A stretch of DNA of 45,536 nt from Escherichia phage vB_EcoS_WFI: sequence record NC_073058.1; one strand, 5' to 3'. Below the pieces are notes generated by a model. The model worked only from the letters and a program-made list of their open reading frames with translations, ran no database searches and was not told the DNA's origin. Of the stretch, positions 1,204-42,882 are shown in pieces. Made by a program: the position numbers and the translations under genes. Position 1 is the first letter of the stretch. Every line of letters begins with the position of its first letter.

Positions 1204-1832
1204 AATTACTATTCCGCCGTAACTCAGATGGCTATATCCTGAAGCCGATCCAGACCTTATCGAACTGGGTACGCCTCCACCACGTTGCAAGCGATAAAGT
1301 CTGGTGGGCGACTAAGGCAAAGCTGCCGGAGTACTACGAAATCCTCACACACGATATCGAGCGCGGCGATGTGCTGCGGGATATTCGCGACGGGCAATTG
1401 TGGGTCGTGGAATACACCTACCGGCACGGCCTGCGTATGACGTCCCGCAAGGATGGCGTAGCGGGCAACATGGTCAAGGGCATGACGTACTTCGGGCTAA
1501 TCAACTACGAACGAGTGGGCCGCAAGTACAGCAAGCGTGACCGCCAGCCACATGAGCGAGCGAACGCCATAGCTGACGTCGTCAACCGCGTAACGCGTGA
1601 GGTGGCGCAGAAGATGAGCGTTGAGTTCCGCAAATCCCAGCCAGCGTATGCGACCTACGACGCCCGCCAGGTGCAGGCCAGACTTAACAAGGCCACGCAT
1701 GAGATAATTAATCACGTTGATGCCGTGACGAATGCGCAGCGCATGGCCCGCGAATACGGCGTAGGATTCATCCGTGTCGAGCAAGACGGCAGCATGTCCG
1801 CTATAGACCCGCGCTCGGTAATACTGAAATGA
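1200..1832 (+). CDS. hypothetical protein (210 aa), N-terminal domain paralogous to 859..1203
   Basis: Motifs ERGDVLRDIRDGQLWVV and GLINYERVGRK align with the upstream gene; translationally coupled. Confidence 0.6.
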   Translation: MKLLFRRNSDGYILKPIQTLSNWVRLHHVASDKVWWATKAKLPEYYEILTHDIERGDVLRDIRDGQLWVVEYTYRHGLRMTSRKDGVAGNMVKGMTYFGLINYERVGRKYSKRDRQPHERANAIADVVNRVTREVAQKMSVEFRKSQPAYATYDARQVQARLNKATHEIINHVDAVTNAQRMAREYGVGFIRVEQDGSMSAIDPRSVILK

Positions 1833-1953
1833 GCGCGACTATCCGTGATATGCTTATGCATAACCGCTTTGAGATAGGCGGGCGAGTATTCTGCAATTAC
1901 TTCGTGGCGCGTGCTTGGGCGCGCCATATCGGAAAACCAGTAGGGGCAATACG

Positions 1954-2241
1954 ATGCTATACGATTTGATATTTTGGTTTGGTTTGGGGTGTGCGTCACT
2001 CTTTGTTGTGGTGCTGGCGCTGTTGGTATGGCTATTCCTGGTATGGCCCGCGGTGGAAGCAGCCAGCATTACCCGCATGACGTTCAAGATATACAAGCGC
2101 CGCGGCATATCGGAACACCCGACCAGGTTGCGCATGTGGTGGCTTTGGTATCTGGATATGATTGGCGGTCGAAGGTTTGAGGCCATCCGGTCATCCGGGT
2201 GGGAATGGAAAGGCGTCGGCAAGTGGTCCATTTTCGATTAA
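1954..2241 (+). CDS. small membrane protein (95 aa)
   Basis: ATG 1954 with GGGG 8 nt upstream; hydrophobic N-terminal segments (LIFWFGLGCASLFVVVLALLVWLFLVW); sits just before the lysis cassette. Confidence 0.45.
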   Translation: MLYDLIFWFGLGCASLFVVVLALLVWLFLVWPAVEAASITRMTFKIYKRRGISEHPTRLRMWWLWYLDMIGGRRFEAIRSSGWEWKGVGKWSIFD

Positions 2242-2293: not shown

Positions 2294-2584
2294 ATGGATA
2301 AGCTAAACGAGTGGTTATTCGCCCTCGCGTGTCTTGCAGGTGGCTTCGTTGGCGCTCGCATTCACGGTGAGGCAACGAAAGGGCCGCTAAATTTTGTGTT
2401 GTTTATCGTGGTCGGCTTCTTGTGCGCCGTGTTTGGGGCACCAGCTATTGCCGAGTGGTTTAATCTAACCGGACCGAGAACTGTCGCCGGTCTTGGCTTC
2501 GTAACGGCAATCTTCTGGATGCCGGTCGCCGCCAGAATCCGTGAAGCAATTTCCTCGTTCCGTCTGCCGGGGAATGCAAAATGA
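2294..2584 (+). CDS. holin-like membrane protein (96 aa, about 3 TM segments)
   Basis: Three hydrophobic helices; immediately upstream of a second small membrane protein and the endolysin; ATGA overlap. Confidence 0.55.
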   Translation: MDKLNEWLFALACLAGGFVGARIHGEATKGPLNFVLFIVVGFLCAVFGAPAIAEWFNLTGPRTVAGLGFVTAIFWMPVAARIREAISSFRLPGNAK

Positions 2585-2820
2585 TTATCGCCATCCTGTT
2601 ATTAGTGATCGGGGCTTCGTCGCTGTATAACGTATACGCGCCATCCGTCCAGGATGGCATTTGCGGACGGGTGCTCTACCTGCTTACAGCAATGACCTGT
2701 ATTATTGGCCTGATGCAAACGGGGGACGTATCGAATACAGTCTGGTCCGTGCTAATCTGGCTATTCGCATTACGCACACTGCGTAATGCTGTTTTAAATG
2801 GGGTAAAACATGCGATTTAG
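2581..2820 (+). CDS. holin or antiholin-like membrane protein (79 aa, 2 TM segments)
   Basis: Two hydrophobic helices; overlaps the endolysin start. Confidence 0.5.
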   Translation: MIIAILLLVIGASSLYNVYAPSVQDGICGRVLYLLTAMTCIIGLMQTGDVSNTVWSVLIWLFALRTLRNAVLNGVKHAI

Positions 2821-3301
2821 TGACAACGGTCTAAGATTTACGGCAGCGTGGGAGTCGTTCAGCCCAGTGCCGTATTTCGCGACTAAGAAGGAGCAGGCCC
2901 GCGGCTTGTACACCTGGGGCTACGGTCATACTGGCACTAATCCGCCACAGAGCATTACCCGCGCGGAAGCGCTGGAGCTACTCAAGCGTGATGTGGCGTA
3001 TGCCGAGAACTGGGTGAACAAGTACGCACACCCGAGCATCAATCAGGCGCAATTCGACGCGCTGGTGGATCTGGTAATCAATGCCGGTCAAGGTCCGATC
3101 GTACCGGATAACATTGCCAATGACTTCGATGACGCGGTGCGCCTGGGTGATTGGGCCAAAGTCCGTGCTACGCTGCCGCAGTTCCGCAAGCAAGGCGGTG
3201 AAGTGCTCAAGGGCCTGGTACGTCGTGCAATCGGCAGACAGGCGCTATTCGATGGTAAGCAGTGGGACGTTGCCGAGAAAATCGGTCGTAACGCGGCATA
3301 A
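2810..3301 (+). CDS. endolysin, GH24 phage lysozyme-like
   Basis: Motif E...YTWGYGHTG typical of T4/lambda-type lysozymes; 163 aa; follows holin candidates. Confidence 0.75.
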   Translation: MRFSDNGLRFTAAWESFSPVPYFATKKEQARGLYTWGYGHTGTNPPQSITRAEALELLKRDVAYAENWVNKYAHPSINQAQFDALVDLVINAGQGPIVPDNIANDFDDAVRLGDWAKVRATLPQFRKQGGEVLKGLVRRAIGRQALFDGKQWDVAEKIGRNAA

Positions 3302-3317
3302 TAAGAGGAAACACAGT

Positions 3318-3731
3318 ATGTTAAAAAGTATTCTTGATCATAACGCCGACGCGCTCGCCGCGCTGGCTAAAACCGAAGACCCCGGCGCACGCGCTATTAT
3401 TGCGGACACTATCAGCCATGCGGGCGTCTTTGACGCGAAGCTGCCTAGCGTGCCGGAAAGTAAGCCGGTGGCAAGTGCGACCATAACCATCACACCGGAA
3501 TCCGCCGCAGTTGGTGCGAAGGCCACCGCTTCGGTTGAGGTCCAGCCACCCGACGCGACTAACAAGGCAGGGAAGTGGGTGTCGTCGAATCCCGCCTGCG
3601 CGGCAATCGATCAGACTACCGGCGAAATCACAGCCCAAACGGCGGGTAGCGCCCACATCTTTTGGGTGGCCTCCGATGGTAGCGGGGCGATGGCGTCCGC
3701 CATCTTCACCGTAACGGGGGCGGAAGAATAA
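3318..3731 (+). CDS. Ig-like (Big_2-type) domain protein, 137 aa
   Basis: ATG 3318 with RBS AAGAGGAAA; C-terminal half Ala/Thr/Ser/Val-rich, resembling bacterial Ig-like domains; the 3081 start in the ORF track was rejected. Confidence 0.55.
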   Translation: MLKSILDHNADALAALAKTEDPGARAIIADTISHAGVFDAKLPSVPESKPVASATITITPESAAVGAKATASVEVQPPDATNKAGKWVSSNPACAAIDQTTGEITAQTAGSAHIFWVASDGSGAMASAIFTVTGAEE

Positions 3732-3764: not shown

Positions 3765-3828
3765 TGCTTGACTTGCAACCAACATAAGGGCCATACTGCA
3801 ACCAATCAACGAGAAGGAGTAACACACT

Positions 3829-3970: not shown

Positions 3971-5113
3971 ATGCACCCTCAAACTAAAATTACCGACGAG
4001 CAATTGATCGCTGAATTGCAATCTGGCACTACCTCGAAAGATATTGCGAAGAAATACGGCATTGCCCTTCGAAATGTCTATATGCGCAAAGCCCGCCTGT
4101 CGAAGAAAGGCATTGGACACGGCAACGATGCTGTAATCCGCAAGCGCGTTGCCGATGGCTTCGGCGTTAAGCGTGTATCAGCCCTGGTGCGCGGCAATGG
4201 CGAAGAGGTCATGTCCTGGGTCATCACCGAGCAGGACAAGGAGCGCCAACTTGAAGCAATGCGCGCCGTTGTCGAGGGTATGAACAGCGAAATCACACCG
4301 GCAGCACCAGTGAGCGCTCCGCCAGTCCCGATCCAGGCGCTTGACCTGCTTAACCTGTATACCGTGTCGGACTTCCACCTGGGAATGTTGGCATGGGGCG
4401 AGGAGACTGGCGAAGACTGGGATATGGCAATCGCCGAAGACCTTTTCTACCGCTGGTTTGTCGAAGCCTTCGCCCGCGCGCCGGACGCTGGCACTGCCGT
4501 AATCAATATCCTCGGTGATATGGCCCACTTTGACAGCCTCGACGCCGTCACGCCAGCCAGTGGTCACGTACTGGACGCAGATACCCGCTACCAGAAACTG
4601 GTCCGCTACATGATTCGCATGGTGCGCAACGTGGTTGAACTGGCGCTGCAAAAACACCATAAGGTCAAACTGTTAATCGTCCAGGGTAATCATGATGAGT
4701 CCGGTATGATTTGGCTGGCTGAGATGTTCAATACCCTGTACGAGAACGAGCCGCGCGTTGATGTGGACACGTCCCCGGACGTTTACAAAATGGTGCAGCA
4801 CGGTAAAACAACGCTGTTCTTCCACCACGGACACAAAGCACGCTTTGACGCCATCGAACCGGTCATGATTTCTAAATTCAGACAGGCTTTCGGGTCCAGT
4901 GAGTACAGCTACGCGCACGTGGGCCACTTGCACCACCAGAAGATTGTTGAATCCCGCAACATGATTGTTGAACAGCACCGGACCCTTGCCGCGAAAGACG
5001 CATATGCGAGCCGCGGCGGTTGGATGTCTGGTCGTAGTGCTAACGTCATCACCTATAGCGCCAACTACGGCGAAGTAGCGCGCTTAACCATTAGCCCGGA
5101 AATGTTGAAATGA
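3971..5113 (+). CDS. calcineurin-like metallophosphoesterase with N-terminal HTH-like domain
   Basis: Phosphoesterase motif series DFHLG, GDMAHFD, QGNHDE, FHHGHK, HVGHLHH; N-terminal SKDIAKKYGIALRNVYMRKARL resembles an HTH. Confidence 0.6.
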   Translation: MHPQTKITDEQLIAELQSGTTSKDIAKKYGIALRNVYMRKARLSKKGIGHGNDAVIRKRVADGFGVKRVSALVRGNGEEVMSWVITEQDKERQLEAMRAVVEGMNSEITPAAPVSAPPVPIQALDLLNLYTVSDFHLGMLAWGEETGEDWDMAIAEDLFYRWFVEAFARAPDAGTAVINILGDMAHFDSLDAVTPASGHVLDADTRYQKLVRYMIRMVRNVVELALQKHHKVKLLIVQGNHDESGMIWLAEMFNTLYENEPRVDVDTSPDVYKMVQHGKTTLFFHHGHKARFDAIEPVMISKFRQAFGSSEYSYAHVGHLHHQKIVESRNMIVEQHRTLAAKDAYASRGGWMSGRSANVITYSANYGEVARLTISPEMLK

Positions 5114-5322
5114 TTAGACAAGTATTCATGAGCACGCAGGCCACCCGCCTGAAAGAGCTTCGCAAACAGCTTGAAGGCTTGCGCCGATTCGAACGAACGG
5201 CAGCGGCAATAGGCATGTCTATCAGTGAGCGGATCGAGATACTATCGCAGATACGCTACACAGAAGGCGCTATAAGCGAAGTAGAAAGCATGTTGACCAG
5301 ATACTACGGTCGTGCCGTTTAA
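5110..5322 (+). CDS. hypothetical protein (70 aa)
   Basis: ATGA overlap with upstream gene; followed by a terminator. Confidence 0.4.
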   Translation: MIRQVFMSTQATRLKELRKQLEGLRRFERTAAAIGMSISERIEILSQIRYTEGAISEVESMLTRYYGRAV

Positions 5323-5328
5323 CCCTCC

Positions 5329-5356
5329 CAGCCCGCCGATTTGGTGGGCTTTTTTG
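5329..5356 (+). terminator. rho-independent terminator upstream of the terminase genes
   Basis: CCAGCCCGCC-GATTT-GGTGGGCT stem followed by TTTTTT. Confidence 0.45.
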
Positions 5357-5439
5357 TGCCTGTTATAATCCCCCTTAGATGGCTGGGCCGTCTCCTATGT
5401 TGCCGATGGTCGGCGCATATGCATAAAAGGGCTTATATC

Positions 5440-5991
5440 ATGGCAGAAATCAAAGTTAAGGGCCGTCGTGCCAAACTGGACGGACGAGTAGCAGTTACCC
5501 CGCGCCGTAAACCAGGCGAGCAAACAGAACACACCAATCTTGGACCAGAGATCGAATACGGCAAGCGTCGTAAAGGCGGCAAATGCGGACGCCCGACCGA
5601 CTACCGCACCGTGTATTGTGACCAGCTTCGTCGCTATTTCGCCGATGCCGTAGCCTGGCAGATCAACTACTCCGACAAGGGCGCTGCGCAAGTCATCCCT
5701 CGAAACATGATGCCGACTCTCGGTCGATTCGCTGCAAATATTGGTGTAGGCATCGCCTGCCTGTATCGCTGGGCGCGCGCACATGAGGAGTTCGCCGAAG
5801 CGATGGCGGACGCTATGGAGTTGCAGAAAACTTTCCTGATGGAAGCTGGCGGCGTGACCATCGCGGCGGGCTTCGCTACGTTCCTGCTTAAAGCCAACCA
5901 CGGCATTCGTGACGATGCGCCGCTGGATGACGACGAAGATGATAACGGCGACGTCGTTGTGGAACCTACCGGCAAAGGCCAGGGTGAGTAA
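5440..5991 (+). CDS. terminase small subunit (putative)
   Basis: Directly upstream of and overlapping TerL (ATGA at 5991); basic N-terminus, acidic C-terminus; start at 5440 chosen over 5341 or 5419. Confidence 0.55.
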   Translation: MAEIKVKGRRAKLDGRVAVTPRRKPGEQTEHTNLGPEIEYGKRRKGGKCGRPTDYRTVYCDQLRRYFADAVAWQINYSDKGAAQVIPRNMMPTLGRFAANIGVGIACLYRWARAHEEFAEAMADAMELQKTFLMEAGGVTIAAGFATFLLKANHGIRDDAPLDDDEDDNGDVVVEPTGKGQGE

Positions 5992-7376
5992 TGCGTAACT
6001 ATGCGGCAGAACACCGCGCACTTGAACGCGCGATCGCAAAGCGCAACCGACCGCCACGCCCTACGCGCGTTGCGCAGGCCGTCCGCCTGTATCAGCCTGA
6101 TTGCCTTCCGCACCAGGTAGAACTGCTGCGCGACACGAAGACTAAAATCCTCGGCCTTTGCTCCGGCTTCGGTGGCGGAAAGTCGTGGGTAGCGGCGCGT
6201 AAGGTCATCCAGCTTCTCACACTTAACCCCGGTCATGATGGCATCGTTACAGAACCGACTATTCCACTCCTGGTTAAAATCATGTACCCGGAGCTTGAGA
6301 AGGCATTCGACGAGGCTGGATTCCGGTGGAAGTTCAACAAGCAAGACAAGATTTATAGCGTGCTGGTGAAAGGCAAATGGACCCGCGTTATTTGTGAGTC
6401 AATGGAGAACTACACCCGCCTGATCGGGGTTAACGCCGCGTGGATTGTTGCCGATGAGTTCGACACCACTAAGCAAGACGTCGCTATGGCGGCATATCAC
6501 AAATTGCTTGGTCGTCTGCGTGCGGGCCTGGTGCGCCAGTTCGTCATCGTATCCACGCCTGAAGGCTTCCGGGCGATGTACCAGATTTTCGAAGTGGAGA
6601 AGGATAGCCAGAAACGTTTGATCAGGGCGAAGACTACCGATAATCACCACTTACCGGCAGACTTTATCGACACGCTGCGGAGCCAGTACCCGGCAAACCT
6701 GATTGATGCATACCTGAACGGCCTGTTTGTCAACCTTACGTCTGGCGCGGTCTACAAGATGTTTAACCGCGAAGAGAACGCCAGCACCGAGGAAGTGCAA
6801 CCGGATGATACGCTGATTATCGGTATGGACTTTAACGTAACGAAAATGGCGGCGGTTGTGTACGTCAGACGGCAGCACACTACCGAGAACAAGGAGTTCC
6901 GCGACGAGATTCACGCAGTGGATGAATTCGTGGACCTGTTTGATACCCCGGCTATGATTGAGGCGATCGAGGAGCGCTACCCCGATCATTGTGCTGCCGG
7001 TCGGGTCGTCGTTTACCCGGATAGCAGTGGCAAGTCTCGAAAGACTGTTAACGCATCGTCGTCCGATATCGCGCAACTGGAAGACGCTGGCTTCGAGGTG
7101 GAGTATGACAGCGTCAACCCGCCTGTAAAAGACAGATTGATCGCGATGAATACGATGATGTGCAACTCGAAGGGCGTGCGCCAGTATTTTGTCAACATGG
7201 ATAAATGCCCTACACTAGCGAAATGTCTGGAACAGCAGGTTTATGACCTGAAGAAAGGCGAGCCGGATAAAACCGCCGGTGTGGACCACATGAACGATGC
7301 CGCGGGCTATCCAATTGCGCACCTGTTCCCAGTGATTCGTCCTATCGCCGTTGTTCCAACTGTTGACTTCTACTAA
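5991..7376 (+). CDS. terminase large subunit
   Basis: Walker A-like GLCSGFGGGKS and Walker B IVADEFD; 461 aa; position between TerS and portal. Confidence 0.85.
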   Translation: MRNYAAEHRALERAIAKRNRPPRPTRVAQAVRLYQPDCLPHQVELLRDTKTKILGLCSGFGGGKSWVAARKVIQLLTLNPGHDGIVTEPTIPLLVKIMYPELEKAFDEAGFRWKFNKQDKIYSVLVKGKWTRVICESMENYTRLIGVNAAWIVADEFDTTKQDVAMAAYHKLLGRLRAGLVRQFVIVSTPEGFRAMYQIFEVEKDSQKRLIRAKTTDNHHLPADFIDTLRSQYPANLIDAYLNGLFVNLTSGAVYKMFNREENASTEEVQPDDTLIIGMDFNVTKMAAVVYVRRQHTTENKEFRDEIHAVDEFVDLFDTPAMIEAIEERYPDHCAAGRVVVYPDSSGKSRKTVNASSSDIAQLEDAGFEVEYDSVNPPVKDRLIAMNTMMCNSKGVRQYFVNMDKCPTLAKCLEQQVYDLKKGEPDKTAGVDHMNDAAGYPIAHLFPVIRPIAVVPTVDFY

Positions 7377-8907: not shown

Positions 8908-9994
8908 TCAACATATGGCGGATCGTATGATTCGCCGTCACATCTTCACCCAGCGCCTGAGCAATGACCAGGCGCGAAGGGTGCTGACTATGTGGGAGAA
9001 GTTCCGGCCCACGTTACTTGGTAAGCTGACCGAGTTACTTGATGGCAAAAAGTCCATGAATAACAAGGCACTGACCACACTGTTAACGCAAATCGACAAG
9101 ACCGTCAAAACGGAACTGCGCACCGAGTTTAAGGCGCTGGCTGAAAGCCTTCAGGAGTTCGCCGACACGGAGGCTGATTATCTTGCCGATACATTAACGG
9201 CAGCGATCCAGCCAGCGGTCGCCGTACCGGCTGTTGAGGTTGTTGGCGTAGTGACTGGCGCGCAGATCGCAGCGACGGCTATGAAAAACCCATTCCAGGG
9301 TAACACCATGATGCAATGGCCCGATTCACTTTCGGAGTGGACCAGGACGCAGATCGGTAATCAGGTGCGCGCTGGATTCATCCAGGGCAAGCCGACTATG
9401 GAAATTATCGCGGACGTAAGGCGCGCTCTCGGCGGTCGTAGTGCGCAGGCAATCTCAAGCGTTGTTAAGTCCGCAGTAAACCACTATGCGGCGACCGCCC
9501 GCGAATTAATGGTAAAAGCTAATGACGATATTCTCGAAGGTCGCCAATGGTTGGCTACATTGGATACGCATACTTCTCCCATGTGCCAGCTACGCGATCG
9601 CCTGTTTTATCCAGTTGATGTTACTCCCGACACCAAAGGAAAGCGCGGCGGGAAAGTGGTGGCTGGGTCACAATATGGCGCTGGTCCGGGCAAGCTGCAT
9701 TATTGCTGCCGGTCTACGGAGACGTGGAAAGTCAAAGGCATGGAAGATTGGCCCAGTGGTAAGCGTCCGGCACTGAAGGCTGACGCGGGTCGATTGCTGA
9801 GTGAGCAGGTCGACGCGCAGACTGATTTCTTCTCATGGGTGCAGCGCCAGCCGCGCCATATTCTGGAGGAATTATATGGGGTGCAGCGCGCAGACCAGAT
9901 TATGCGCGGCGTGAAAGTGCCGAATATGTTCACCGATACTGGCGAACTAATGACTATCGCACAGCTTAAAAACCGGGGGTTATGGCGTGATTAA
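8891..9994 (+). CDS. head morphogenesis protein (MuF / SPP1 gp7-like)
   Basis: Motif WLATLDTHTSPMCQLRDRLFYPVD typical of the MuF-like family; follows portal. Confidence 0.7.
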   Translation: MARTINQHMADRMIRRHIFTQRLSNDQARRVLTMWEKFRPTLLGKLTELLDGKKSMNNKALTTLLTQIDKTVKTELRTEFKALAESLQEFADTEADYLADTLTAAIQPAVAVPAVEVVGVVTGAQIAATAMKNPFQGNTMMQWPDSLSEWTRTQIGNQVRAGFIQGKPTMEIIADVRRALGGRSAQAISSVVKSAVNHYAATARELMVKANDDILEGRQWLATLDTHTSPMCQLRDRLFYPVDVTPDTKGKRGGKVVAGSQYGAGPGKLHYCCRSTETWKVKGMEDWPSGKRPALKADAGRLLSEQVDAQTDFFSWVQRQPRHILEELYGVQRADQIMRGVKVPNMFTDTGELMTIAQLKNRGLWRD

Positions 9995-10295
9995 ATATGC
10001 AGCGATTGGACTGGTTATCGGTCTGGCGGTTGGATTCTGGCAGGGTGATTCCTACCGCACTGGCGTTGTGGCGAAAGCGGCGCAAGAAGCGCAAGCCGAA
10101 GCCCAACGGCAGCAAACTAAGGTTGTTGAGGGGTCGGTGAAGGCTGAGCAAGCCCGCGACGTGGAATACCGGACTATCACGAAAGAGGTTGTAAAATATG
10201 TTACGCGTCCTAACCGTCCTGATTGTAGTTTTGATGCTGAGCGCGTGCGGATCAAGCAAAGCGCCATCGACGCCGCTAACCGAGTCGGTCTATAG
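9987..10295 (+). CDS. i-spanin (Rz-like)
   Basis: N-terminal TM helix (IKYAAIGLVIGLAVGFW) followed by charged coiled-coil region; o-spanin gene overlaps in another frame. Confidence 0.65.
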   Translation: MIKYAAIGLVIGLAVGFWQGDSYRTGVVAKAAQEAQAEAQRQQTKVVEGSVKAEQARDVEYRTITKEVVKYVTRPNRPDCSFDAERVRIKQSAIDAANRVGL

Positions 10296-10428
10296 ACCGC
10301 CTTGCACCTTTGAGAATGCCTCGGCAGATCCAGACGAGGACTTGCTTGTTGATGTTAAAAATATGGAATGCGGGGCTAAGCTGAGGGCGCAAGTGCTGGA
10401 GTTGCAGAAAATAATTCGGGGGCCGTAA
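10198..10428 (+). CDS. o-spanin (Rz1-like lipoprotein)
   Basis: Signal peptide with lipobox LSAC, Pro-rich mature part; starts inside the i-spanin gene in a different frame. Confidence 0.65.
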   Translation: MLRVLTVLIVVLMLSACGSSKAPSTPLTESVYRPPCTFENASADPDEDLLVDVKNMECGAKLRAQVLELQKIIRGP

Positions 10429-10442
10429 TGGCCCCCTTTTTG
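10418..10442. terminator. bidirectional terminator between convergent genes
   Basis: GGGGGCCGTAATGGCCCCC hairpin followed by TTTTTG; the o-spanin stop lies in the loop. Confidence 0.6.
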
Positions 10443-11207
10443 TTAGCGCGGAATACCGCAAATCTCGTTTAACGTCTTCACGTCCAGCGCTACTGCCGTT
10501 GACTTCGGCTTGTCCGGGTATGGAATGAACTGTTCAACTTCAGGCCACGCCGCGATCAGCTTCTTGTCAGTATTGTGCATATCCAGCACGCCGGTAACAG
10601 TTAGTTTGAACGCGTCATACTTCGCACGCAATTCACGGCGGGCCTTGTCGTTGCGGTCCAGGCGCTTGCAGAAATCATGATCTGCCGGGTAGTCTACGCG
10701 ACCGCGCGGGAGATATATCGGCAGCGCGGCCCCGTTCTCGTCCACTTCACACACTGACGCGAGCATAACTTCCTCGTACCCCGGTACTATATCGCTGAGA
10801 TCCGGCGCGAGCGTATTCATATATTTCTCTTCCCAGTATCCGCGGTGCTGGCGGTAGCGGTATCCGTCGCCGCTCATATGCAGGGTACGGATGTTACCGC
10901 CTGCGTTGATTTCGAAAGTGGAGCAGTAAACGCGTCCAATGCCTTTCGTCCGGTCCTTGTTATAGCTGTACGACGCTTTATCGGTGTAAACGCTGACGCC
11001 GTACATCTGCGACTGGTTATCGCTGATTTCTGCGATATATGCGCGTAGCTCGGCGAACGTGTGAATGCCTTTTGGCATACAGTGCAACGTAATGTCATAC
11101 GCCAGGTCGCGAGAGTCCATCATGATTTTTTTGGCTTCAGTCGCGATTTCGTGGTCGCGCAGGATGTTAGCCAGAATCTGGTTTTTAATGTCTTTTGTCA
11201 GTCTCAT
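10443..11207 (-). CDS. hypothetical protein (254 aa), opposite-strand gene inside the head module
   Basis: ATG at 11207 with RBS GAGGA; two ATTGGTTGCAC motifs and TATATT just upstream; no recognisable motifs. Confidence 0.6.
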   Translation of the reverse strand: MRLTKDIKNQILANILRDHEIATEAKKIMMDSRDLAYDITLHCMPKGIHTFAELRAYIAEISDNQSQMYGVSVYTDKASYSYNKDRTKGIGRVYCSTFEINAGGNIRTLHMSGDGYRYRQHRGYWEEKYMNTLAPDLSDIVPGYEEVMLASVCEVDENGAALPIYLPRGRVDYPADHDFCKRLDRNDKARRELRAKYDAFKLTVTGVLDMHNTDKKLIAAWPEVEQFIPYPDKPKSTAVALDVKTLNEICGIPR

Positions 11208-11356
11208 TTGTGTGTCCTCATTGTTGGTGTGCAACCAATATAGTGCAACCAATACCTGGATTGCAAGCGAATTTTGCGATTATTTTTATCGCTGATAATA
11301 TTAGAGGCGTGAAGTCGAGCGGGTGGCCCGCTCTGCCACAATCCCAGGGGGATAGC

Positions 11357-12061
11357 ATGAAACTTACTAAAGCAGAATATGACGCGTTGCCGGAAAGTAT
11401 GAAGGCGCTCTTTGTTGCCGATGGCGACGGGTATAAATCAACATTTATGTCCGCTGACGAAGTACAGGCGGAAATCAAGGGTCTGAAAGACAACAACGCA
11501 AAGCTGGTGAGCGAGAAGAAAGCAGAAGCTGAACGCCGCGCCGAAGCCGAGCGCCTTGCGAAAGAGAAAGAGGAAGCCGCCGCGCGCAAAAATGGCGACC
11601 TCGAAGCGATCGATAAGTCCTGGAAGGATAAGTTTGCAAAACACGAAGCAGACACATCGGGGAAAATCGAATCATATCGCAAGCAGATCCACGACCTTAC
11701 TATCGGCAGCGCTGCCAAAGACCTGGCCTCGAAGCTATTCGGTAAGAATGCTGGCATCATGCAACGCCACGTAATGGAGCGCCTCGCGCTGGAAGACGGC
11801 GAAGACGGCAGCTTGAAAGTGCGTGTCTTGCAGGATGGCAAACCGTCCGCGTTGACTATGGACGAGCTTGAAAAAGAGTTCCGTAATAACGCTGATTTTG
11901 CATCCGTCCTGGCTGGCACGCCAGCCGGTGGCGCACCGAGCAAACCGACACAGGTTATCGAAGATGCGAAGTCTAAAATCACGATGGGCCATAGCTTCGG
12001 TATCACCGACCTGACGAAACAGGCAGGGGATATCATCGCTAAGATGGGCGACGACGAGTAA
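11357..12061 (+). CDS. scaffolding protein (putative)
   Basis: Charged, predicted coiled-coil (AEAERRAEAERLAKEKEEAAARK); immediately upstream of major capsid gene; RBS GGGGGA. Confidence 0.6.
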   Translation: MKLTKAEYDALPESMKALFVADGDGYKSTFMSADEVQAEIKGLKDNNAKLVSEKKAEAERRAEAERLAKEKEEAAARKNGDLEAIDKSWKDKFAKHEADTSGKIESYRKQIHDLTIGSAAKDLASKLFGKNAGIMQRHVMERLALEDGEDGSLKVRVLQDGKPSALTMDELEKEFRNNADFASVLAGTPAGGAPSKPTQVIEDAKSKITMGHSFGITDLTKQAGDIIAKMGDDE

Positions 12062-12158: not shown

Positions 12159-13259
12159 ATGTCTTTAACAGTGTTCCAGCGTAAACTCGTTACCGCGGTT
12201 ACGCAGATGATTCCCGACAACCTGAACGTGTTCAACGCTGCCGCTAACGGCGCTGTTGTTCTCGGTACAGGTGAAGTGCTGAAGGACGTTGTAGAAAAAA
12301 TGTCCGTAGGCTTGATCGCCAACCTCGTTACTGACCGTAACGCCTACGCCCCTGTTGGTACTCCGGCAACCGCTAAAGTGCTGGCGCGTATGCTGACCAA
12401 CTCGGTTAACCTCTCCGCGAAAGTGGGTCCGGTAGCAATCACCAAGGCTATGATGGCTAAGATCGAAACCAACGTTAACAGCGTTGCGGCTGAGATTGCG
12501 GCACAGGCTACTCAAGCGATTATGCTGCATTACCTGAAGGCCGGTATCGGTGCAAGTAAAGCGGCGATCGAGAGCAACGCAGCGGCAGCATACACCCAAC
12601 CGGCGCGCGTTGATGGCGTTGGCGGTCGTACCTTCCCGACCCTGGCAGACTTCCCGCTGGCGGCTTCTAAGTTCGGCGATCAGGCGTCTTTGATTAAGTC
12701 CTGGTTTATGGACGGCGTTACCTGGGCTAACTTCATTGCCTATCAGGCACTGCCTTCTGCGGAGCAGGTATTCGCTATCGGCGATCTGCAAGTAATGGGT
12801 GATGGCCTGGGCCGTCGTTTCATTATCTCCGATGCCGCTGCCGATGCTATGGGCGCTGGCAAAATGCTGGGTCTGGTCCCTGGCGCGGTTGCAGTTACCA
12901 CCAACGGCCTCGATATGCTGGCGCAGGAAAAAGGCGGTAACGAGAACATCGAGCGCTGGTGGCAGGGTGAGTTCGACTTCAACGTGGCTGTTAAAGGCTA
13001 CCGTCTGAAGGCGTCCGCTCGTACCCCGATCGAAGGCGTCCGCTCTTTTGCCCTGGGTGATATCACCACTAAGGACAACTGGGAACTGGACCAGGGCCAG
13101 GTTGACAACGCTCCGGCAACCGTCCAGGACGTTGGCGCGCAGGACGGTAGCGGGTCACTCGGTCGTCGTAAGAAGCAGGCTGAACAGACCGCACCTACCC
13201 GTAACATCAAGGAAACGGCTGGCGTACTGGTTACGCTGACTGCTACCAGCGCGTCTTAA
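12159..13259 (+). CDS. major capsid protein
   Basis: 366 aa ORF after scaffold, followed by a strong terminator; size and position typical. Confidence 0.7.
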   Translation: MSLTVFQRKLVTAVTQMIPDNLNVFNAAANGAVVLGTGEVLKDVVEKMSVGLIANLVTDRNAYAPVGTPATAKVLARMLTNSVNLSAKVGPVAITKAMMAKIETNVNSVAAEIAAQATQAIMLHYLKAGIGASKAAIESNAAAAYTQPARVDGVGGRTFPTLADFPLAASKFGDQASLIKSWFMDGVTWANFIAYQALPSAEQVFAIGDLQVMGDGLGRRFIISDAAADAMGAGKMLGLVPGAVAVTTNGLDMLAQEKGGNENIERWWQGEFDFNVAVKGYRLKASARTPIEGVRSFALGDITTKDNWELDQGQVDNAPATVQDVGAQDGSGSLGRRKKQAEQTAPTRNIKETAGVLVTLTATSAS

Positions 13260-26073: not shown

Positions 26074-26097
26074 AAGGGGCCATCCGGCCCCTTTTTT
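26074..26097. terminator. terminator between convergent genes
   Basis: AAGGGGCCATCCGGCCCCTT hairpin followed by TTTTTT. Confidence 0.6.
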
Positions 26098-27061
26098 AAT
26101 AGATATTAGGAATGACGAGTAACGGGGTGGGTACGGCAATATTTTTGCCCGGCATTTGGAATTGCTGCCGTGAGTAGTTGCCAATGACGCGGTTTTTGGC
26201 GATGCGCACATTATTACCCGCCATTCGTATCCCGTTCATGCGCACATGGTTGTATCCGCTGTTGTTCTCAATGAGCGCACCGGTATATGAAAGCTGGATC
26301 AGACTATTACCGATGTGCTGGTCGCCGCCACCGATATGAATCGTGCGGTCGTAGACAAACGGCTTGTTTACCGTCGAGAACGTGACCTGCCCCTGGTTGT
26401 TAGTCATGGTGATACCGGTCCCCGGTGAGGGCGGCGTATTGTTGAATATTACCAGGTCCATATCAACGGCAGCGCCTACGTCGTCAATCCCGCCATAGGA
26501 CGCATTACGGACGATAATACTTCCGCCATCGAAGCCAACCGATACGTTGCCGTCGTCCCAGCGCGCGAACGGGACACCGCCGACTGGTAGCGGCATACTT
26601 CCGTCTACCCGCACACGCTGCGCATATCGGCAGGTCATTAGCCGTGCTACGTTGGATATGGCGGTGAAGTCTGTAGAGTTAGCTACCAGAATCCCCGCAT
26701 TGCGTGACCCCACCGGCAGCACTTCCATAATCACCCCGCCCCATGTTGGAAGCCCGCTGTATGCGTTATAGGCGTCCTCACCGCGCAAGGTGATCCCGCC
26801 ATCCCCGTTACGTTGTATCGACGTCACATAAAACGGGTCTGGCAAGACCAGGGTCTGGTCGAATACTTCCATCACTTCTACCGGATTAGTTAGGGCAACG
26901 ACCAGTTCGGACCCTGGAGTCAGCGGTGTGTTAATGGTCAGCGTCTTGTCAGACTGACAGCGCTGATTAAAGGTAGTGCAAAACGACGGAGCGCGAAGGC
27001 CCGCGGTTATCTCCATGACAGGTCTACCGTCGTTGTAGTCGATAAGTATTCCAGCGCCCAT
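26096..27061 (-). CDS. hypothetical Gly/Asn-rich beta-type protein (321 aa), opposite strand
   Basis: ATG at 27061, 2 nt after the stop of the upstream lipoprotein gene; Gly/Asn/Val/Thr-rich composition (my guess: beta-rich); no recognised motif. Confidence 0.5.
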   Translation of the reverse strand: MGAGILIDYNDGRPVMEITAGLRAPSFCTTFNQRCQSDKTLTINTPLTPGSELVVALTNPVEVMEVFDQTLVLPDPFYVTSIQRNGDGGITLRGEDAYNAYSGLPTWGGVIMEVLPVGSRNAGILVANSTDFTAISNVARLMTCRYAQRVRVDGSMPLPVGGVPFARWDDGNVSVGFDGGSIIVRNASYGGIDDVGAAVDMDLVIFNNTPPSPGTGITMTNNQGQVTFSTVNKPFVYDRTIHIGGGDQHIGNSLIQLSYTGALIENNSGYNHVRMNGIRMAGNNVRIAKNRVIGNYSRQQFQMPGKNIAVPTPLLVIPNIY

Positions 27062-27063
27062 TA

Positions 27064-27285
27064 TTACCACTCCCGCGATTTAACTGATACTGTACCTGAG
27101 AAATTGCCGTCGCTATCGGCAGATAGGCCAGTGAAGCGCATGTCCACGTCTCCGGCAGGGACTTTCTGCCCGTCAACGTAACGCAACATGCAGCTTCCGT
27201 AAGCCACCGTAATGCAATCACCGTTGTTGCGTTCTACAGCACAACCGGACAAAAGAACAGCACAAATCATAATTAAAGTTTTCAT
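27064..27285 (-). CDS. small lipoprotein, Cor-like superinfection-exclusion candidate
   Basis: RBS AGGAGA before ATG; signal peptide with lipobox LLSGC; Cys-rich 73-aa product; location next to tail-fiber genes as for cor genes in T1/phi80-type phages. Confidence 0.45.
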   Translation of the reverse strand: MKTLIMICAVLLSGCAVERNNGDCITVAYGSCMLRYVDGQKVPAGDVDMRFTGLSADSDGNFSGTVSVKSREW

Positions 27286-30636: not shown

Positions 30637-31107
30637 CTATTGGTTGCAAGTAAATTTTGCTACGTTTATAGAATAAATTTTCGGGACCAGATCGCCGCAC
30701 GCGCGACGTATGGCTTCGATATTCTTCGGGCAGTCTTCAATGATGACCAGTTCGGACACGTCCGCATAGCACACCATTTTGAACACCGCGCACGCCTTAA
30801 ATTCCGGCGGTGGGGTGTCATCCAGCATGTGGCGCATGAACAACCGGCCTGTCGGGAATACTTTCAACTGTTCAGCGGTAGTCTCCCAGCATTCGCGCTG
30901 CCGGTTAGTCAGATACGCTATCTCGAAGCCTTGCTCTTTGTACATGCGCAGCAACGGCAGCATGTCCATGTTCAGGTCTTCGCGGACGTGCGCTTTGTGC
31001 CACTTCGCCCAAAAGGTTGATTTGGTTTTTATGCCGGGCACCAGGTCAGCACGCGCATCACTTGAACCATTAATAACGCCATCCAGATCACAAATCAGTA
31101 GTTTCAT
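30637..31107 (-). CDS. HAD-superfamily phosphatase (polynucleotide 3'-phosphatase or nucleotidase-like)
   Basis: N-terminal motif LICDLDGVI (DxDGT-type). Confidence 0.55.
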   Translation of the reverse strand: MKLLICDLDGVINGSSDARADLVPGIKTKSTFWAKWHKAHVREDLNMDMLPLLRMYKEQGFEIAYLTNRQRECWETTAEQLKVFPTGRLFMRHMLDDTPPPEFKACAVFKMVCYADVSELVIIEDCPKNIEAIRRACGDLVPKIYSINVAKFTCNQ

Positions 31108-31328
31108 TTTAAGCTCTCAATAAGGGTGTGACGGGCGCTTCGCGCCGTAAAGGAGTTGCATACAAAATGGCAACGCTTGGTTATGACAAGCCAACCGGTA
31201 AGGTCAAGGCCCATGATGGATTCGGGTCTGGATACGCGCATCACACGGTCGCGGCGCGGGTCGATGAAGAAGTCCCATTGCATTTGGTCTACTACCGCAG
31301 GGTCGCGGTCAACGATTAAGATATTCAT
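31104..31328 (-). CDS. hypothetical protein (74 aa)
   Basis: ORF track; ATGA overlap with downstream gene. Confidence 0.4.
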   Translation of the reverse strand: MNILIVDRDPAVVDQMQWDFFIDPRRDRVMRVSRPESIMGLDLTGWLVITKRCHFVCNSFTARSARHTLIESLK

Positions 31329-31794
31329 GTAGTTCTCTCTCGCTCATTATTTCAATTTGTGCGCTGCCGATGGGCGGCGCTTCGTCAAATATTATCAATT
31401 GCTGGCACTTGTTATTGCTCGGCCCAACTTCGCCGGTCACAGCATGGATGAATCGCACACGCCAGTCCAGAAGAATTATCATGTTTGCAGTCTTCCGGGC
31501 CAGCCTCGCCCACTTCGTCGATGTGTCTTGATTCAGTAGCATTACCGTCCGGCGTCCGTGCGCAGCACACTCGACCCACGGCAGCGGATCGGAGTACGGC
31601 GGGTTGCACCACTTCCACCCTTTCAACTCTGACCAGTCCGCATCAAGCGCGCTATGCTCTGCCGTGAAGTAGCGCGGTAGCAGGTGATTGGCGTCGCTTG
31701 CAGCCATATCGTAACGAAATCGGTACTTACGGCGCAGCGGTTTAAATAAAGCTGGCGGAGTGCGCCAGCTATCCTTTTGCTCACTCTTCTGCAT
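31309..31794 (-). CDS. phage-type DNA N6-adenine methyltransferase (Dam-like)
   Basis: Motifs WRTPPALF, DMAASDANH, and NPPYS. Confidence 0.8.
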   Translation of the reverse strand: MQKSEQKDSWRTPPALFKPLRRKYRFRYDMAASDANHLLPRYFTAEHSALDADWSELKGWKWCNPPYSDPLPWVECAAHGRRTVMLLNQDTSTKWARLARKTANMIILLDWRVRFIHAVTGEVGPSNNKCQQLIIFDEAPPIGSAQIEIMSERELHEYLNR

Positions 31795-32245
31795 GGTCGG
31801 TGTCTATCGCGTAAAGGGCAATCTTTTCCCCTTTCTTCAGGATTCGCTGCAATCGCTGCGTCTCCGACACCCCCAAAGGGCGCGCGTCCGGGTAGAAGTT
31901 GCCGTTTGTTGGGTGTCGCCACGCCATAAGCACCAGGTCTTTACGGGCGACCGCAGACTGGCGGCCCTTCGGACGCACGTACGCCTCGGCACGTTTGCAA
32001 TGCTCACGCAGACCTTCAGCCGTCATGCGATTAAGCACCGCGGTGGTTGTGTATCCGGTGCGCTGCATAATCCCCATCAGTTCGAACAGCAGTTCGAAGC
32101 GCTCCTCTAACTCCTTGCGCACCTTCTCCTCACCTTCATAGCTCGCAAGGTAGGTGTCTGCCAGCGCGTTCGCGCGTTCGGCCTGTTCGCGGGCTTCGAG
32201 GCACTGCGCGGCCCAGTAATTTTTCTCTTCTTGTAAAATTTTCAT
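31781..32245 (-). CDS. hypothetical protein (154 aa)
   Basis: ORF track; overlaps neighbours. Confidence 0.5.
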   Translation of the reverse strand: MKILQEEKNYWAAQCLEAREQAERANALADTYLASYEGEEKVRKELEERFELLFELMGIMQRTGYTTTAVLNRMTAEGLREHCKRAEAYVRPKGRQSAVARKDLVLMAWRHPTNGNFYPDARPLGVSETQRLQRILKKGEKIALYAIDTDHAEE

Positions 32246-42552: not shown

Positions 42553-42882
42553 ATGCATATCAACGACGCTATCGAAATGTTAACTAAGACCGTAAGCGGT
42601 GAGACAAGCCGGTCCTGGGCTTATACCGATGCCGTTGGTGCGGCGTTATTTGAAATCGAACGCCTGCGCAGTGTCGAAAAAGAATTGCGCGCCAAGCTGG
42701 AATTACTCAACGGTACGGCAGCAAGCAAGCTGCAAAAACACAATGAAGAAATGGAAGAATACAAAAAGCAGGTTATCCGTTTACGCGACGAGGGCAAGTC
42801 CTGGGCGATGATTGCCGAGTTGACCGGAATTAATCAGAGCACCGTGCGCTCCTGGGTACGCAATAATAAAACTTCTAAGTAA
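42553..42882 (+). CDS. HTH-type transcriptional regulator (putative)
   Basis: RBS AGGAGA; C-terminal WAMIAELTGINQSTVRSWV resembles an HTH. Confidence 0.5.
   Translation: MHINDAIEMLTKTVSGETSRSWAYTDAVGAALFEIERLRSVEKELRAKLELLNGTAASKLQKHNEEMEEYKKQVIRLRDEGKSWAMIAELTGINQSTVRSWVRNNKTSK

Follow-up and report, generated by a model that had tools for sequence, protein, structure and literature searches.

The window analysed here is the whole stretch of 45,536 nucleotides from Escherichia phage vB_EcoS_WFI (NC_073058.1), which tblastn assigns to Dhillonvirus, a genus of siphoviruses infecting E. coli. At 10443–11207, it contains a minus-strand open reading frame of 254 codons plus stop which, as stated in the initial annotation, is the sole leftward gene between the terminase (5341–7376) and the major capsid gene (12159–13259). 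This gene is nmad5, and its surroundings comprise the following features:

10443–11207, minus strand: nmad5 coding sequence, with a full-length match to Pfam PF18757; its product is 82% identical to that of the syntenic nmad5 (CDS0006) of phage PhiSMS22
10560–10562, minus strand: codon of Lys216, the Tmn-escape residue, located within T-x-K-K-L-x3-W-P-E, the most conserved motif of the family
11215–11219, minus strand: Shine–Dalgarno sequence GAGGA, taken straight from the sequence and separated from the ATG by 7 nt
11237–11266, minus strand: σ70-like promoter TTGCAA–18 nt–TATATT, agreeing with the consensus at 9 of 12 positions and assigned by consensus match only
11229–11239 and 11243–11253, minus strand: two exact copies of ATTGGTTGCAC, 14 bp apart, conserved in HK578, SM_S24, Bas83 and Teewinot
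10418–10436, both strands: bidirectional terminator-like, GC-rich hairpin GGGGGCCGTAATGGCCCCC, common to the o-spanin and nmad5 units
9987–10295 and 10198–10428, plus strand: overlapping i-spanin and o-spanin genes converging on nmad5, the o-spanin with lipobox LSAC; annotated as Rz-like spanin in relatives
11357–12061, plus strand: head scaffolding gene, divergent from nmad5 across a common 150-bp intergenic region

The ATG of nmad5 occupies 11207–11205. A longer version of the gene, starting from a TTG at 11252, was rejected as unlikely because it would run into the promoter, the motifs of which it overlaps; it also lacks a strong ribosome-binding site. At the opposite end, the hairpin GGGGGCCGTAATGGCCCCC is placed between the stop codons of the o-spanin gene and of nmad5 and is terminator-like on both strands, with a weaker T-run on the minus strand; the convergence on the spanin genes at a bidirectional terminator, described previously from the sequence, is thus borne out. 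Another stem-loop (GAGCGGG-TGG-CCCGCTC, 11317–11333), which is without a T-run, is located just upstream of the scaffold gene and is largely kept in five Dhillonviruses, HK578, SM_S24 and Teewinot differing by single bases.

The spanin genes (9987–10428) are found within the head module, approximately 6 kb from the holin/endolysin site of relatives (about 2300–3700). From its closest relative, the window differs by insertions of approximately 530 bp ahead of position 3800, and a 216-aa open reading frame (3081–3731) matching the Ig-like domain Big_2 is present where that relative has its lysin. A second leftward unit of the structural region (26096–27285, minus strand), situated between the tail-tip J-like and tail fibre genes, is composed of a small gene, whose counterpart in a close relative carries a lipoprotein annotation, and a gene for a DUF6453 protein, with TAAATTGGTTGCA upstream; it corresponds to the receptor-binding locus of small siphoviruses described in the BASEL preprint.

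As the Dhillonvirus orthologue of nmad5, the leftward gene encodes a member of the phage-specific family Nmad5 (Nucleotide modification associated domain 5; PF18757). Residues 1–253 of the product are aligned with profile positions 1–206 (E = 6.2e-56; 190.2 bits against a gathering cut-off of 27), and all motifs of the family are present, i.e., the N-terminal R-L-T..I, T-x-K-K-L-x3-W-P-E, and the C-terminal L-N-x3-G-L-P. The initial annotation had recognised no motif in the product; the profile HMM search it proposed removes this orphan status in favour of a named family. The product is also matched by the function-unassigned PHROG family phrog_1965, and scans of the protein with NCBIfam and PADLOC returned no matches. 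According to tblastn, it is 99% identical to the products of vB_EcoS-CHD2B1 and 101114B2 and 80–95% identical to those of more than 130 other records; it is encoded, as in PhiSMS22, between the spanin and scaffold genes, and Lys216 is present (T-D-K-K216-L). Hence, nmad5 is an already known gene, which has been studied experimentally in the genus Dhillonvirus.

An exhaustive search for homologues yielded 90 cluster representatives of 45–253 aa; matches from other sources are, as far as they are annotated, all phage proteins. Diverse Nmad5 homologues were compiled in two alignments of 73 and 78 sequences (A1 and A2, respectively). In the 78-sequence alignment, invariance is limited to L217, W221 and N247, while G104, P222 and L246 are conserved in at least 90% of the sequences, and an invariant acidic, histidine, cysteine or lysine residue is found in none of the positions. 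Since members of the family have K, Q, R, A or N at position 216, Lys216 is not a catalytic lysine. Within Dhillonvirus, conservation is highest in the C-terminal third of the protein, which is of near-neutral charge (pI 6.7) and, by inspection of its sequence, has no predicted membrane segment. The AlphaFold2 model is confident (pLDDT 90.1, pTM 0.83) and is built from N-terminal helices, a four-stranded sheet, a clade-specific middle part, a long helix (178–209), and short C-terminal helices that bear the conserved motif. Comparison of this model with solved structures gave no fold match, neither enzyme-like nor structural-protein. The sole structural matches are family models: Foldseek searches against BFVD returned eight matches at E ≤ 1e-3, all of them phage proteins (target-normalised TM-scores 0.44–0.79), and the three most specifically named ones are annotated as Nmad5 or Nmad domain.

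The genomic contexts of distant homologues are varied. In YuA/M6-like Pseudomonas phages, Nmad5 is encoded between aGPT-Pplase1 and a dUMP hydroxymethylase; in P22-like and Stx2a phages, the homologue is an early-left operon gene flanked by the repressor/N region and cIII-kil; in PTXU04, it adjoins a methyltransferase among early genes; and in metagenomic phages, it is found after primase-polymerase genes. BLAST clustering of the neighbours at 26 diverse Nmad5 loci revealed none that is conserved, and the Pfam matches of the 132 neighbour proteins are scattered—MT-A70 (3), thymidylate-synthase-like (2) and primase-polymerase (2), with mostly single early, replication or recombination families among the remainder.

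Within the genus, approximately 157 phage records contain a capsid gene of the Dhillonvirus type (identity of 80% or more), and approximately 148 of them have at least part of nmad5. The comparison across relatives suggested in the initial annotation shows the gene to be replaced, truncated or deleted in some relatives. In the type species HK578, the slot is occupied by an unrelated leftward gene of 140 aa (HK578_006; 5078–5500, minus strand), and SO-1 has a third unrelated gene there (gp07, 172 aa; 1683–2201, minus strand), which its annotators labelled "possible moron gene product". Genes resembling HK578_006 are also found in Zar3M, PTXU06 and SM_W22, in the first two of which the coordinates place them directly upstream of nmad5, and Haito_Bas83 contains a different extra gene upstream of nmad5 (Bas83_0008, 109 aa; 5632–5961, plus strand). 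The nmad5 copy of SM_S24 is C-terminally truncated, and an internal deletion in Teewinot has left similarity only across the first 54 codons' worth. The cargo genes HK578_006, Bas83_0008 and SO-1 gp07 are mutually unrelated; their Pfam matches are all below the gathering score, including a weak sub-threshold match of SO-1 gp07 to the Pol III beta central domain, and PADLOC found nothing in HK578_006 and Bas83_0008. Homologues of HK578_006 occur in phages of Serratia and Erwinia.

In all cargo variants, the 150-bp divergent intergenic region is kept with its −35/−10 boxes, both motif copies and the context of the ribosome-binding site. As the predicted promoter and terminator are conserved and the cargo varies, the comparison of genomes shows the locus to be a conserved, putative leftward expression cassette with exchangeable cargo. 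What is new here is that the nmad5 slot is a real accessory hot spot. A recent foreign insertion of nmad5 is not supported, given its typical base composition (52.9% GC versus 54.6% in the window) and its near-universal occurrence in the genus (approximately 148 of approximately 157 records). The moron position ascribed to the gene earlier is, therefore, retained in part: the gene is an independent, dispensable unit in a slot with swappable cargo, but it is not a recent insert and uses the phage's own promoter motif.

The upstream region of the gene carries the TATATT box and the two ATTGGTTGCAC motifs reported in the initial annotation, and this motif occurs above chance, with 11 matches in the window at up to one mismatch compared to 1.09 expected. 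Its two copies overlap and flank the −10 box of nmad5 and may, thus, serve as an operator or promoter element. The proximal copy forms part of a longer 17-mer, ATTGGTTGCACACCAAC, which holds the inverted repeat TTGGT-N5-ACCAA and is repeated identically at 71–87 of the window. The core octamer TTGGTTGC is present in 20 copies, versus approximately 1.9 expected under a first-order Markov model; it is often paired, and 13 of the 20 copies are located in intergenic DNA, which makes up 9% of the window. Its positions include:

41 and 72, plus strand: small rightward genes at the window start
3782 and 3805, minus strand: pair in the gap before the Metallophos-like gene (3971–5113) that precedes the terminase genes
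upstream region of nmad5, minus strand
27348, minus strand: leftward receptor-binding/lipoprotein unit
30635 (minus strand)/30640 (plus strand), 32550/32567 (minus strand) and 35508 (minus strand): leftward replication-gene blocks
39317/39333, plus strand: intergenic pair, on the opposite strand within a leftward replication block
42354, plus strand: unit of the HTH (42553–42882) and primase-helicase genes
45170/45205, plus strand

Most of these sites precede non-structural transcription units, while none of the 20 window copies is located directly before a head or tail gene; several are found directly 3' of a TAnATT −10-like hexamer. Copy number and order are much alike in two other Dhillonviruses. 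TTGGTTGC has the appearance of a promoter or operator element common to the genus, of which no earlier description was found in the literature surveyed. On sequence grounds, nmad5 is probably co-regulated with early or middle non-structural genes and not with the surrounding head genes, because the promoter motif is shared and distant homologues reside in early, replication or nucleotide-metabolism modules.

Experimental information on nmad5 comes from the Dhillonviruses PhiSMA8 and PhiSMS22 (Yamashita et al. 2025, Commun Biol, PMC11846954). Escape mutants selected on Tmn-expressing E. coli carried the nmad5 substitutions K216E (PhiSMA8) and K296E (PhiSMS22); reversion of the mutation brought Tmn sensitivity back, and engineering it into the phage conferred resistance (PMC11846954). 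The different residue numbers stem from the PhiSMS22 annotation (PP627283.1, 5005–6009), which at 334 aa is 80 codons too long and extends into the intergenic region. This start was rejected, given that it overlaps the annotated opposite-strand scaffold gene and is without a strong ribosome-binding site; the scaffold annotation (PP627283.1, 5804–6622), which overlaps that of nmad5, is also over-extended. An nmad5 deletion phage was viable yet still blocked by Tmn, the gene being dispensable for plaque formation, and nmad5 was not clonable, apparently because it is toxic (PMC11846954). The published link to Tmn and the cloning toxicity lend support to the moron-like reading given in the initial annotation; superinfection exclusion and a bona fide anti-defence activity of the wild-type protein are not supported.

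A 154-aa open reading frame of the window (31781–32245, minus strand) is 81% identical to CDS0035 of PhiSMS22, presumably the published anti-Tmn ORF35, by which vB_EcoS_WFI would carry both players of the Tmn story, nmad5 and a putative anti-Tmn homologue; close homologues of the anti-Tmn ORF can be inactive (PMC11846954). Ksap1, the Dhillonvirus protein bound by KpAvs2 as its trigger (PMC11564622), was considered as an identity of nmad5 and discarded, being most probably a separate 74-aa open reading frame (31104–31328, minus strand). The latter fits the published description of Ksap1 (PMC11564622), has the escape positions L47 and T50, and is flanked by the Dam methylase gene on one side and a HAD-phosphatase-like gene on the other.

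The best reading of these data is that nmad5 would encode an accessory binding protein interfering with host immunity. More specifically, we consider it fairly probable that the product is a non-catalytic accessory binding protein, expressed from the leftward cassette at an early or middle stage, and that K216E is a gain of function with regard to Tmn. Most likely, Nmad5 would be a cytoplasmic binding or adaptor protein without catalytic activity, the conserved core of which—the N-terminal helix together with the C-terminal T-x-K-K-L-x3-W-P-E ... L-N-x3-G-L-P module—would engage some conserved factor, belonging either to DNA metabolism or to the host cell. Lys216, as a variable residue adjoining the invariant Leu217, is probably exposed on the surface at that interface. 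On the strength of a single published deletion experiment, K216E would most likely be a gain-of-function allele, since the deletion phage stays Tmn-sensitive but K216E escapes. The altered surface by the L217/W221 core may bind either Tmn or its true trigger non-productively, which would block activation; wild-type Nmad5, in turn, would not be the sole trigger of Tmn. In a bolder form, possible although rather doubtful, the Nmad5 proteins would be misnamed and represent a widespread family of early phage binding proteins of novel fold, T-x-K-K-L-x3-W-P-E would dock on a conserved part of the replisome or of the host, K216E would convert the protein into an inhibitor of the Tmn KAP-NTPase, and the cassette would serve counter-defence.

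It is unlikely that wild-type Nmad5 acts as the direct trigger (PAMP) of Tmn, in the manner of T2 RIIB, with K216E abolishing its recognition. This idea accounts for the independent escape mutants of two phages sharing the same substitution and for the restoration of sensitivity upon its reversion (PMC11846954). However, persistence of Tmn sensitivity after nmad5 deletion (PMC11846954) excludes a sole trigger, barring a second, redundant one, and with such a redundant trigger K216E alone should not lead to escape. A RIIB-type trigger is further disfavoured by the lack of similarity between Nmad5 and T4 RIIB (hhalign probability 0.1%).

We regard it as distinctly unlikely that Nmad5 takes part in the base modification of phage DNA, either as an enzyme or as an essential cofactor, and that Tmn senses the modified DNA. 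The protein is referred to as a "DNA modification enzyme" in the 2025 paper (PMC11846954), while the family, defined by Iyer, Zhang, Burroughs and Aravind in 2013, owes its name, to judge from the Pfam entry and the papers citing that definition, to the genomic association with modification genes. This label rests on gene neighbourhood, has little support and is probably misleading. In its favour, YuA/M6-like Nmad5 genes sit among genes for thymidine hypermodification, an adjacent methyltransferase is encoded in PTXU04, and within a distance of three genes an MT-A70 methylase is found at 3 of 26 loci and a C5 methylase at one of 26; by virtue of these distant homologues next to thymidine-hypermodification genes or DNA methylases, a modification role retains some plausibility, and the lack of invariant polar residues is compatible with catalysis. 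Against it stand the missing invariant catalytic-type residue and enzyme-like fold, as well as the gene content of the window. A Pfam scan of its 22 largest non-structural products detected no hypermodification gene (aGPT-Pplase, kinase, hydroxymethylase, rSAM or deazaguanine genes); among them, modification was represented solely by a Dam-type methylase (31309–31794), 20 kb from nmad5, and the scanned products also include an SNF2 helicase, a family A polymerase, a DUF2800 nuclease, an SSB and a primase-helicase. Furthermore, the 5-NedU pathway of phage M6 was reconstituted from gp51–gp54, with Nmad5 not among the proteins tested (gp51–gp55; PMC8989533), Dhillonviruses are comparatively sensitive to restriction-modification systems (BASEL preprint), and a modification-sensing model does not predict that Tmn sensitivity is unchanged upon deletion of nmad5 (PMC11846954).

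A role in head assembly or as a virion protein, to which the location between head morphogenesis and scaffold genes and the presence in most members of the genus might point, is highly improbable, given the opposite strand and the gene's own promoter-like and terminator-like signals, the viability of the deletion phage (PMC11846954), the absence, replacement or truncation in HK578, SO-1, Teewinot and SM_S24, the early or replication regions in which homologues reside elsewhere, and the fact that neither a structural-protein fold match nor homology to a conserved structural or assembly protein—named in the initial annotation as evidence that would speak against its proposal—was found for this Nmad5 family member.

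The gene is of interest in several respects. It decides whether Dhillonvirus phages, which are common candidates for phage therapy, are stopped by Tmn, and the edit of a single codon (10560–10562) is a published route to engineered Tmn escape. The little support for the modification label redirects experiments towards protein–protein interaction, and the cassette with its conserved promoter is a possible place to seek host-interaction genes or to insert engineered payloads.

Of the known systems, nmad5 of PhiSMS22 and PhiSMA8 is closest, with the same slot, the same length of 254 aa and the same Lys216, and with 82% identity in the case of PhiSMS22; the window allele nevertheless differs from that of PhiSMS22 and has its nearest relatives (99%) in vB_EcoS-CHD2B1 and 101114B2. 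With YuA gp15 and the Nmad5 proteins of M6 and SN1, it shares the motifs R-L-T, G-G, A-D-H, T-x-K-K-L-x3-W-P-E and L-N-x3-G-L-P. In contrast to the YuA protein, however, Dhillonvirus Nmad5 is approximately 65 residues longer (254 versus 186 aa) due to additional residues in its central part, and in contrast to YuA and M6, nmad5 of the window does not adjoin any nucleotide-modification gene. Like a moron, the gene is dispensable, is located on the opposite strand with promoter-like and terminator-like signals of its own, and is replaced by other cargo among relatives; unlike a classical moron, it belongs to a virulent phage without prophage expression, has a typical base composition, contains the phage's own genome-wide motif in its promoter, and is near-universal in the genus. 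T2 RIIB, finally, is a Tmn trigger in which a single residue change abolishes defence (bioRxiv 2026, PMC13001434), and the same holds true for the change of one residue in Nmad5; yet Nmad5 has neither sequence similarity to RIIB nor a predicted membrane segment, and while rIIB nonsense mutants escape Tmn (PMC13001434), the nmad5 deletion does not.
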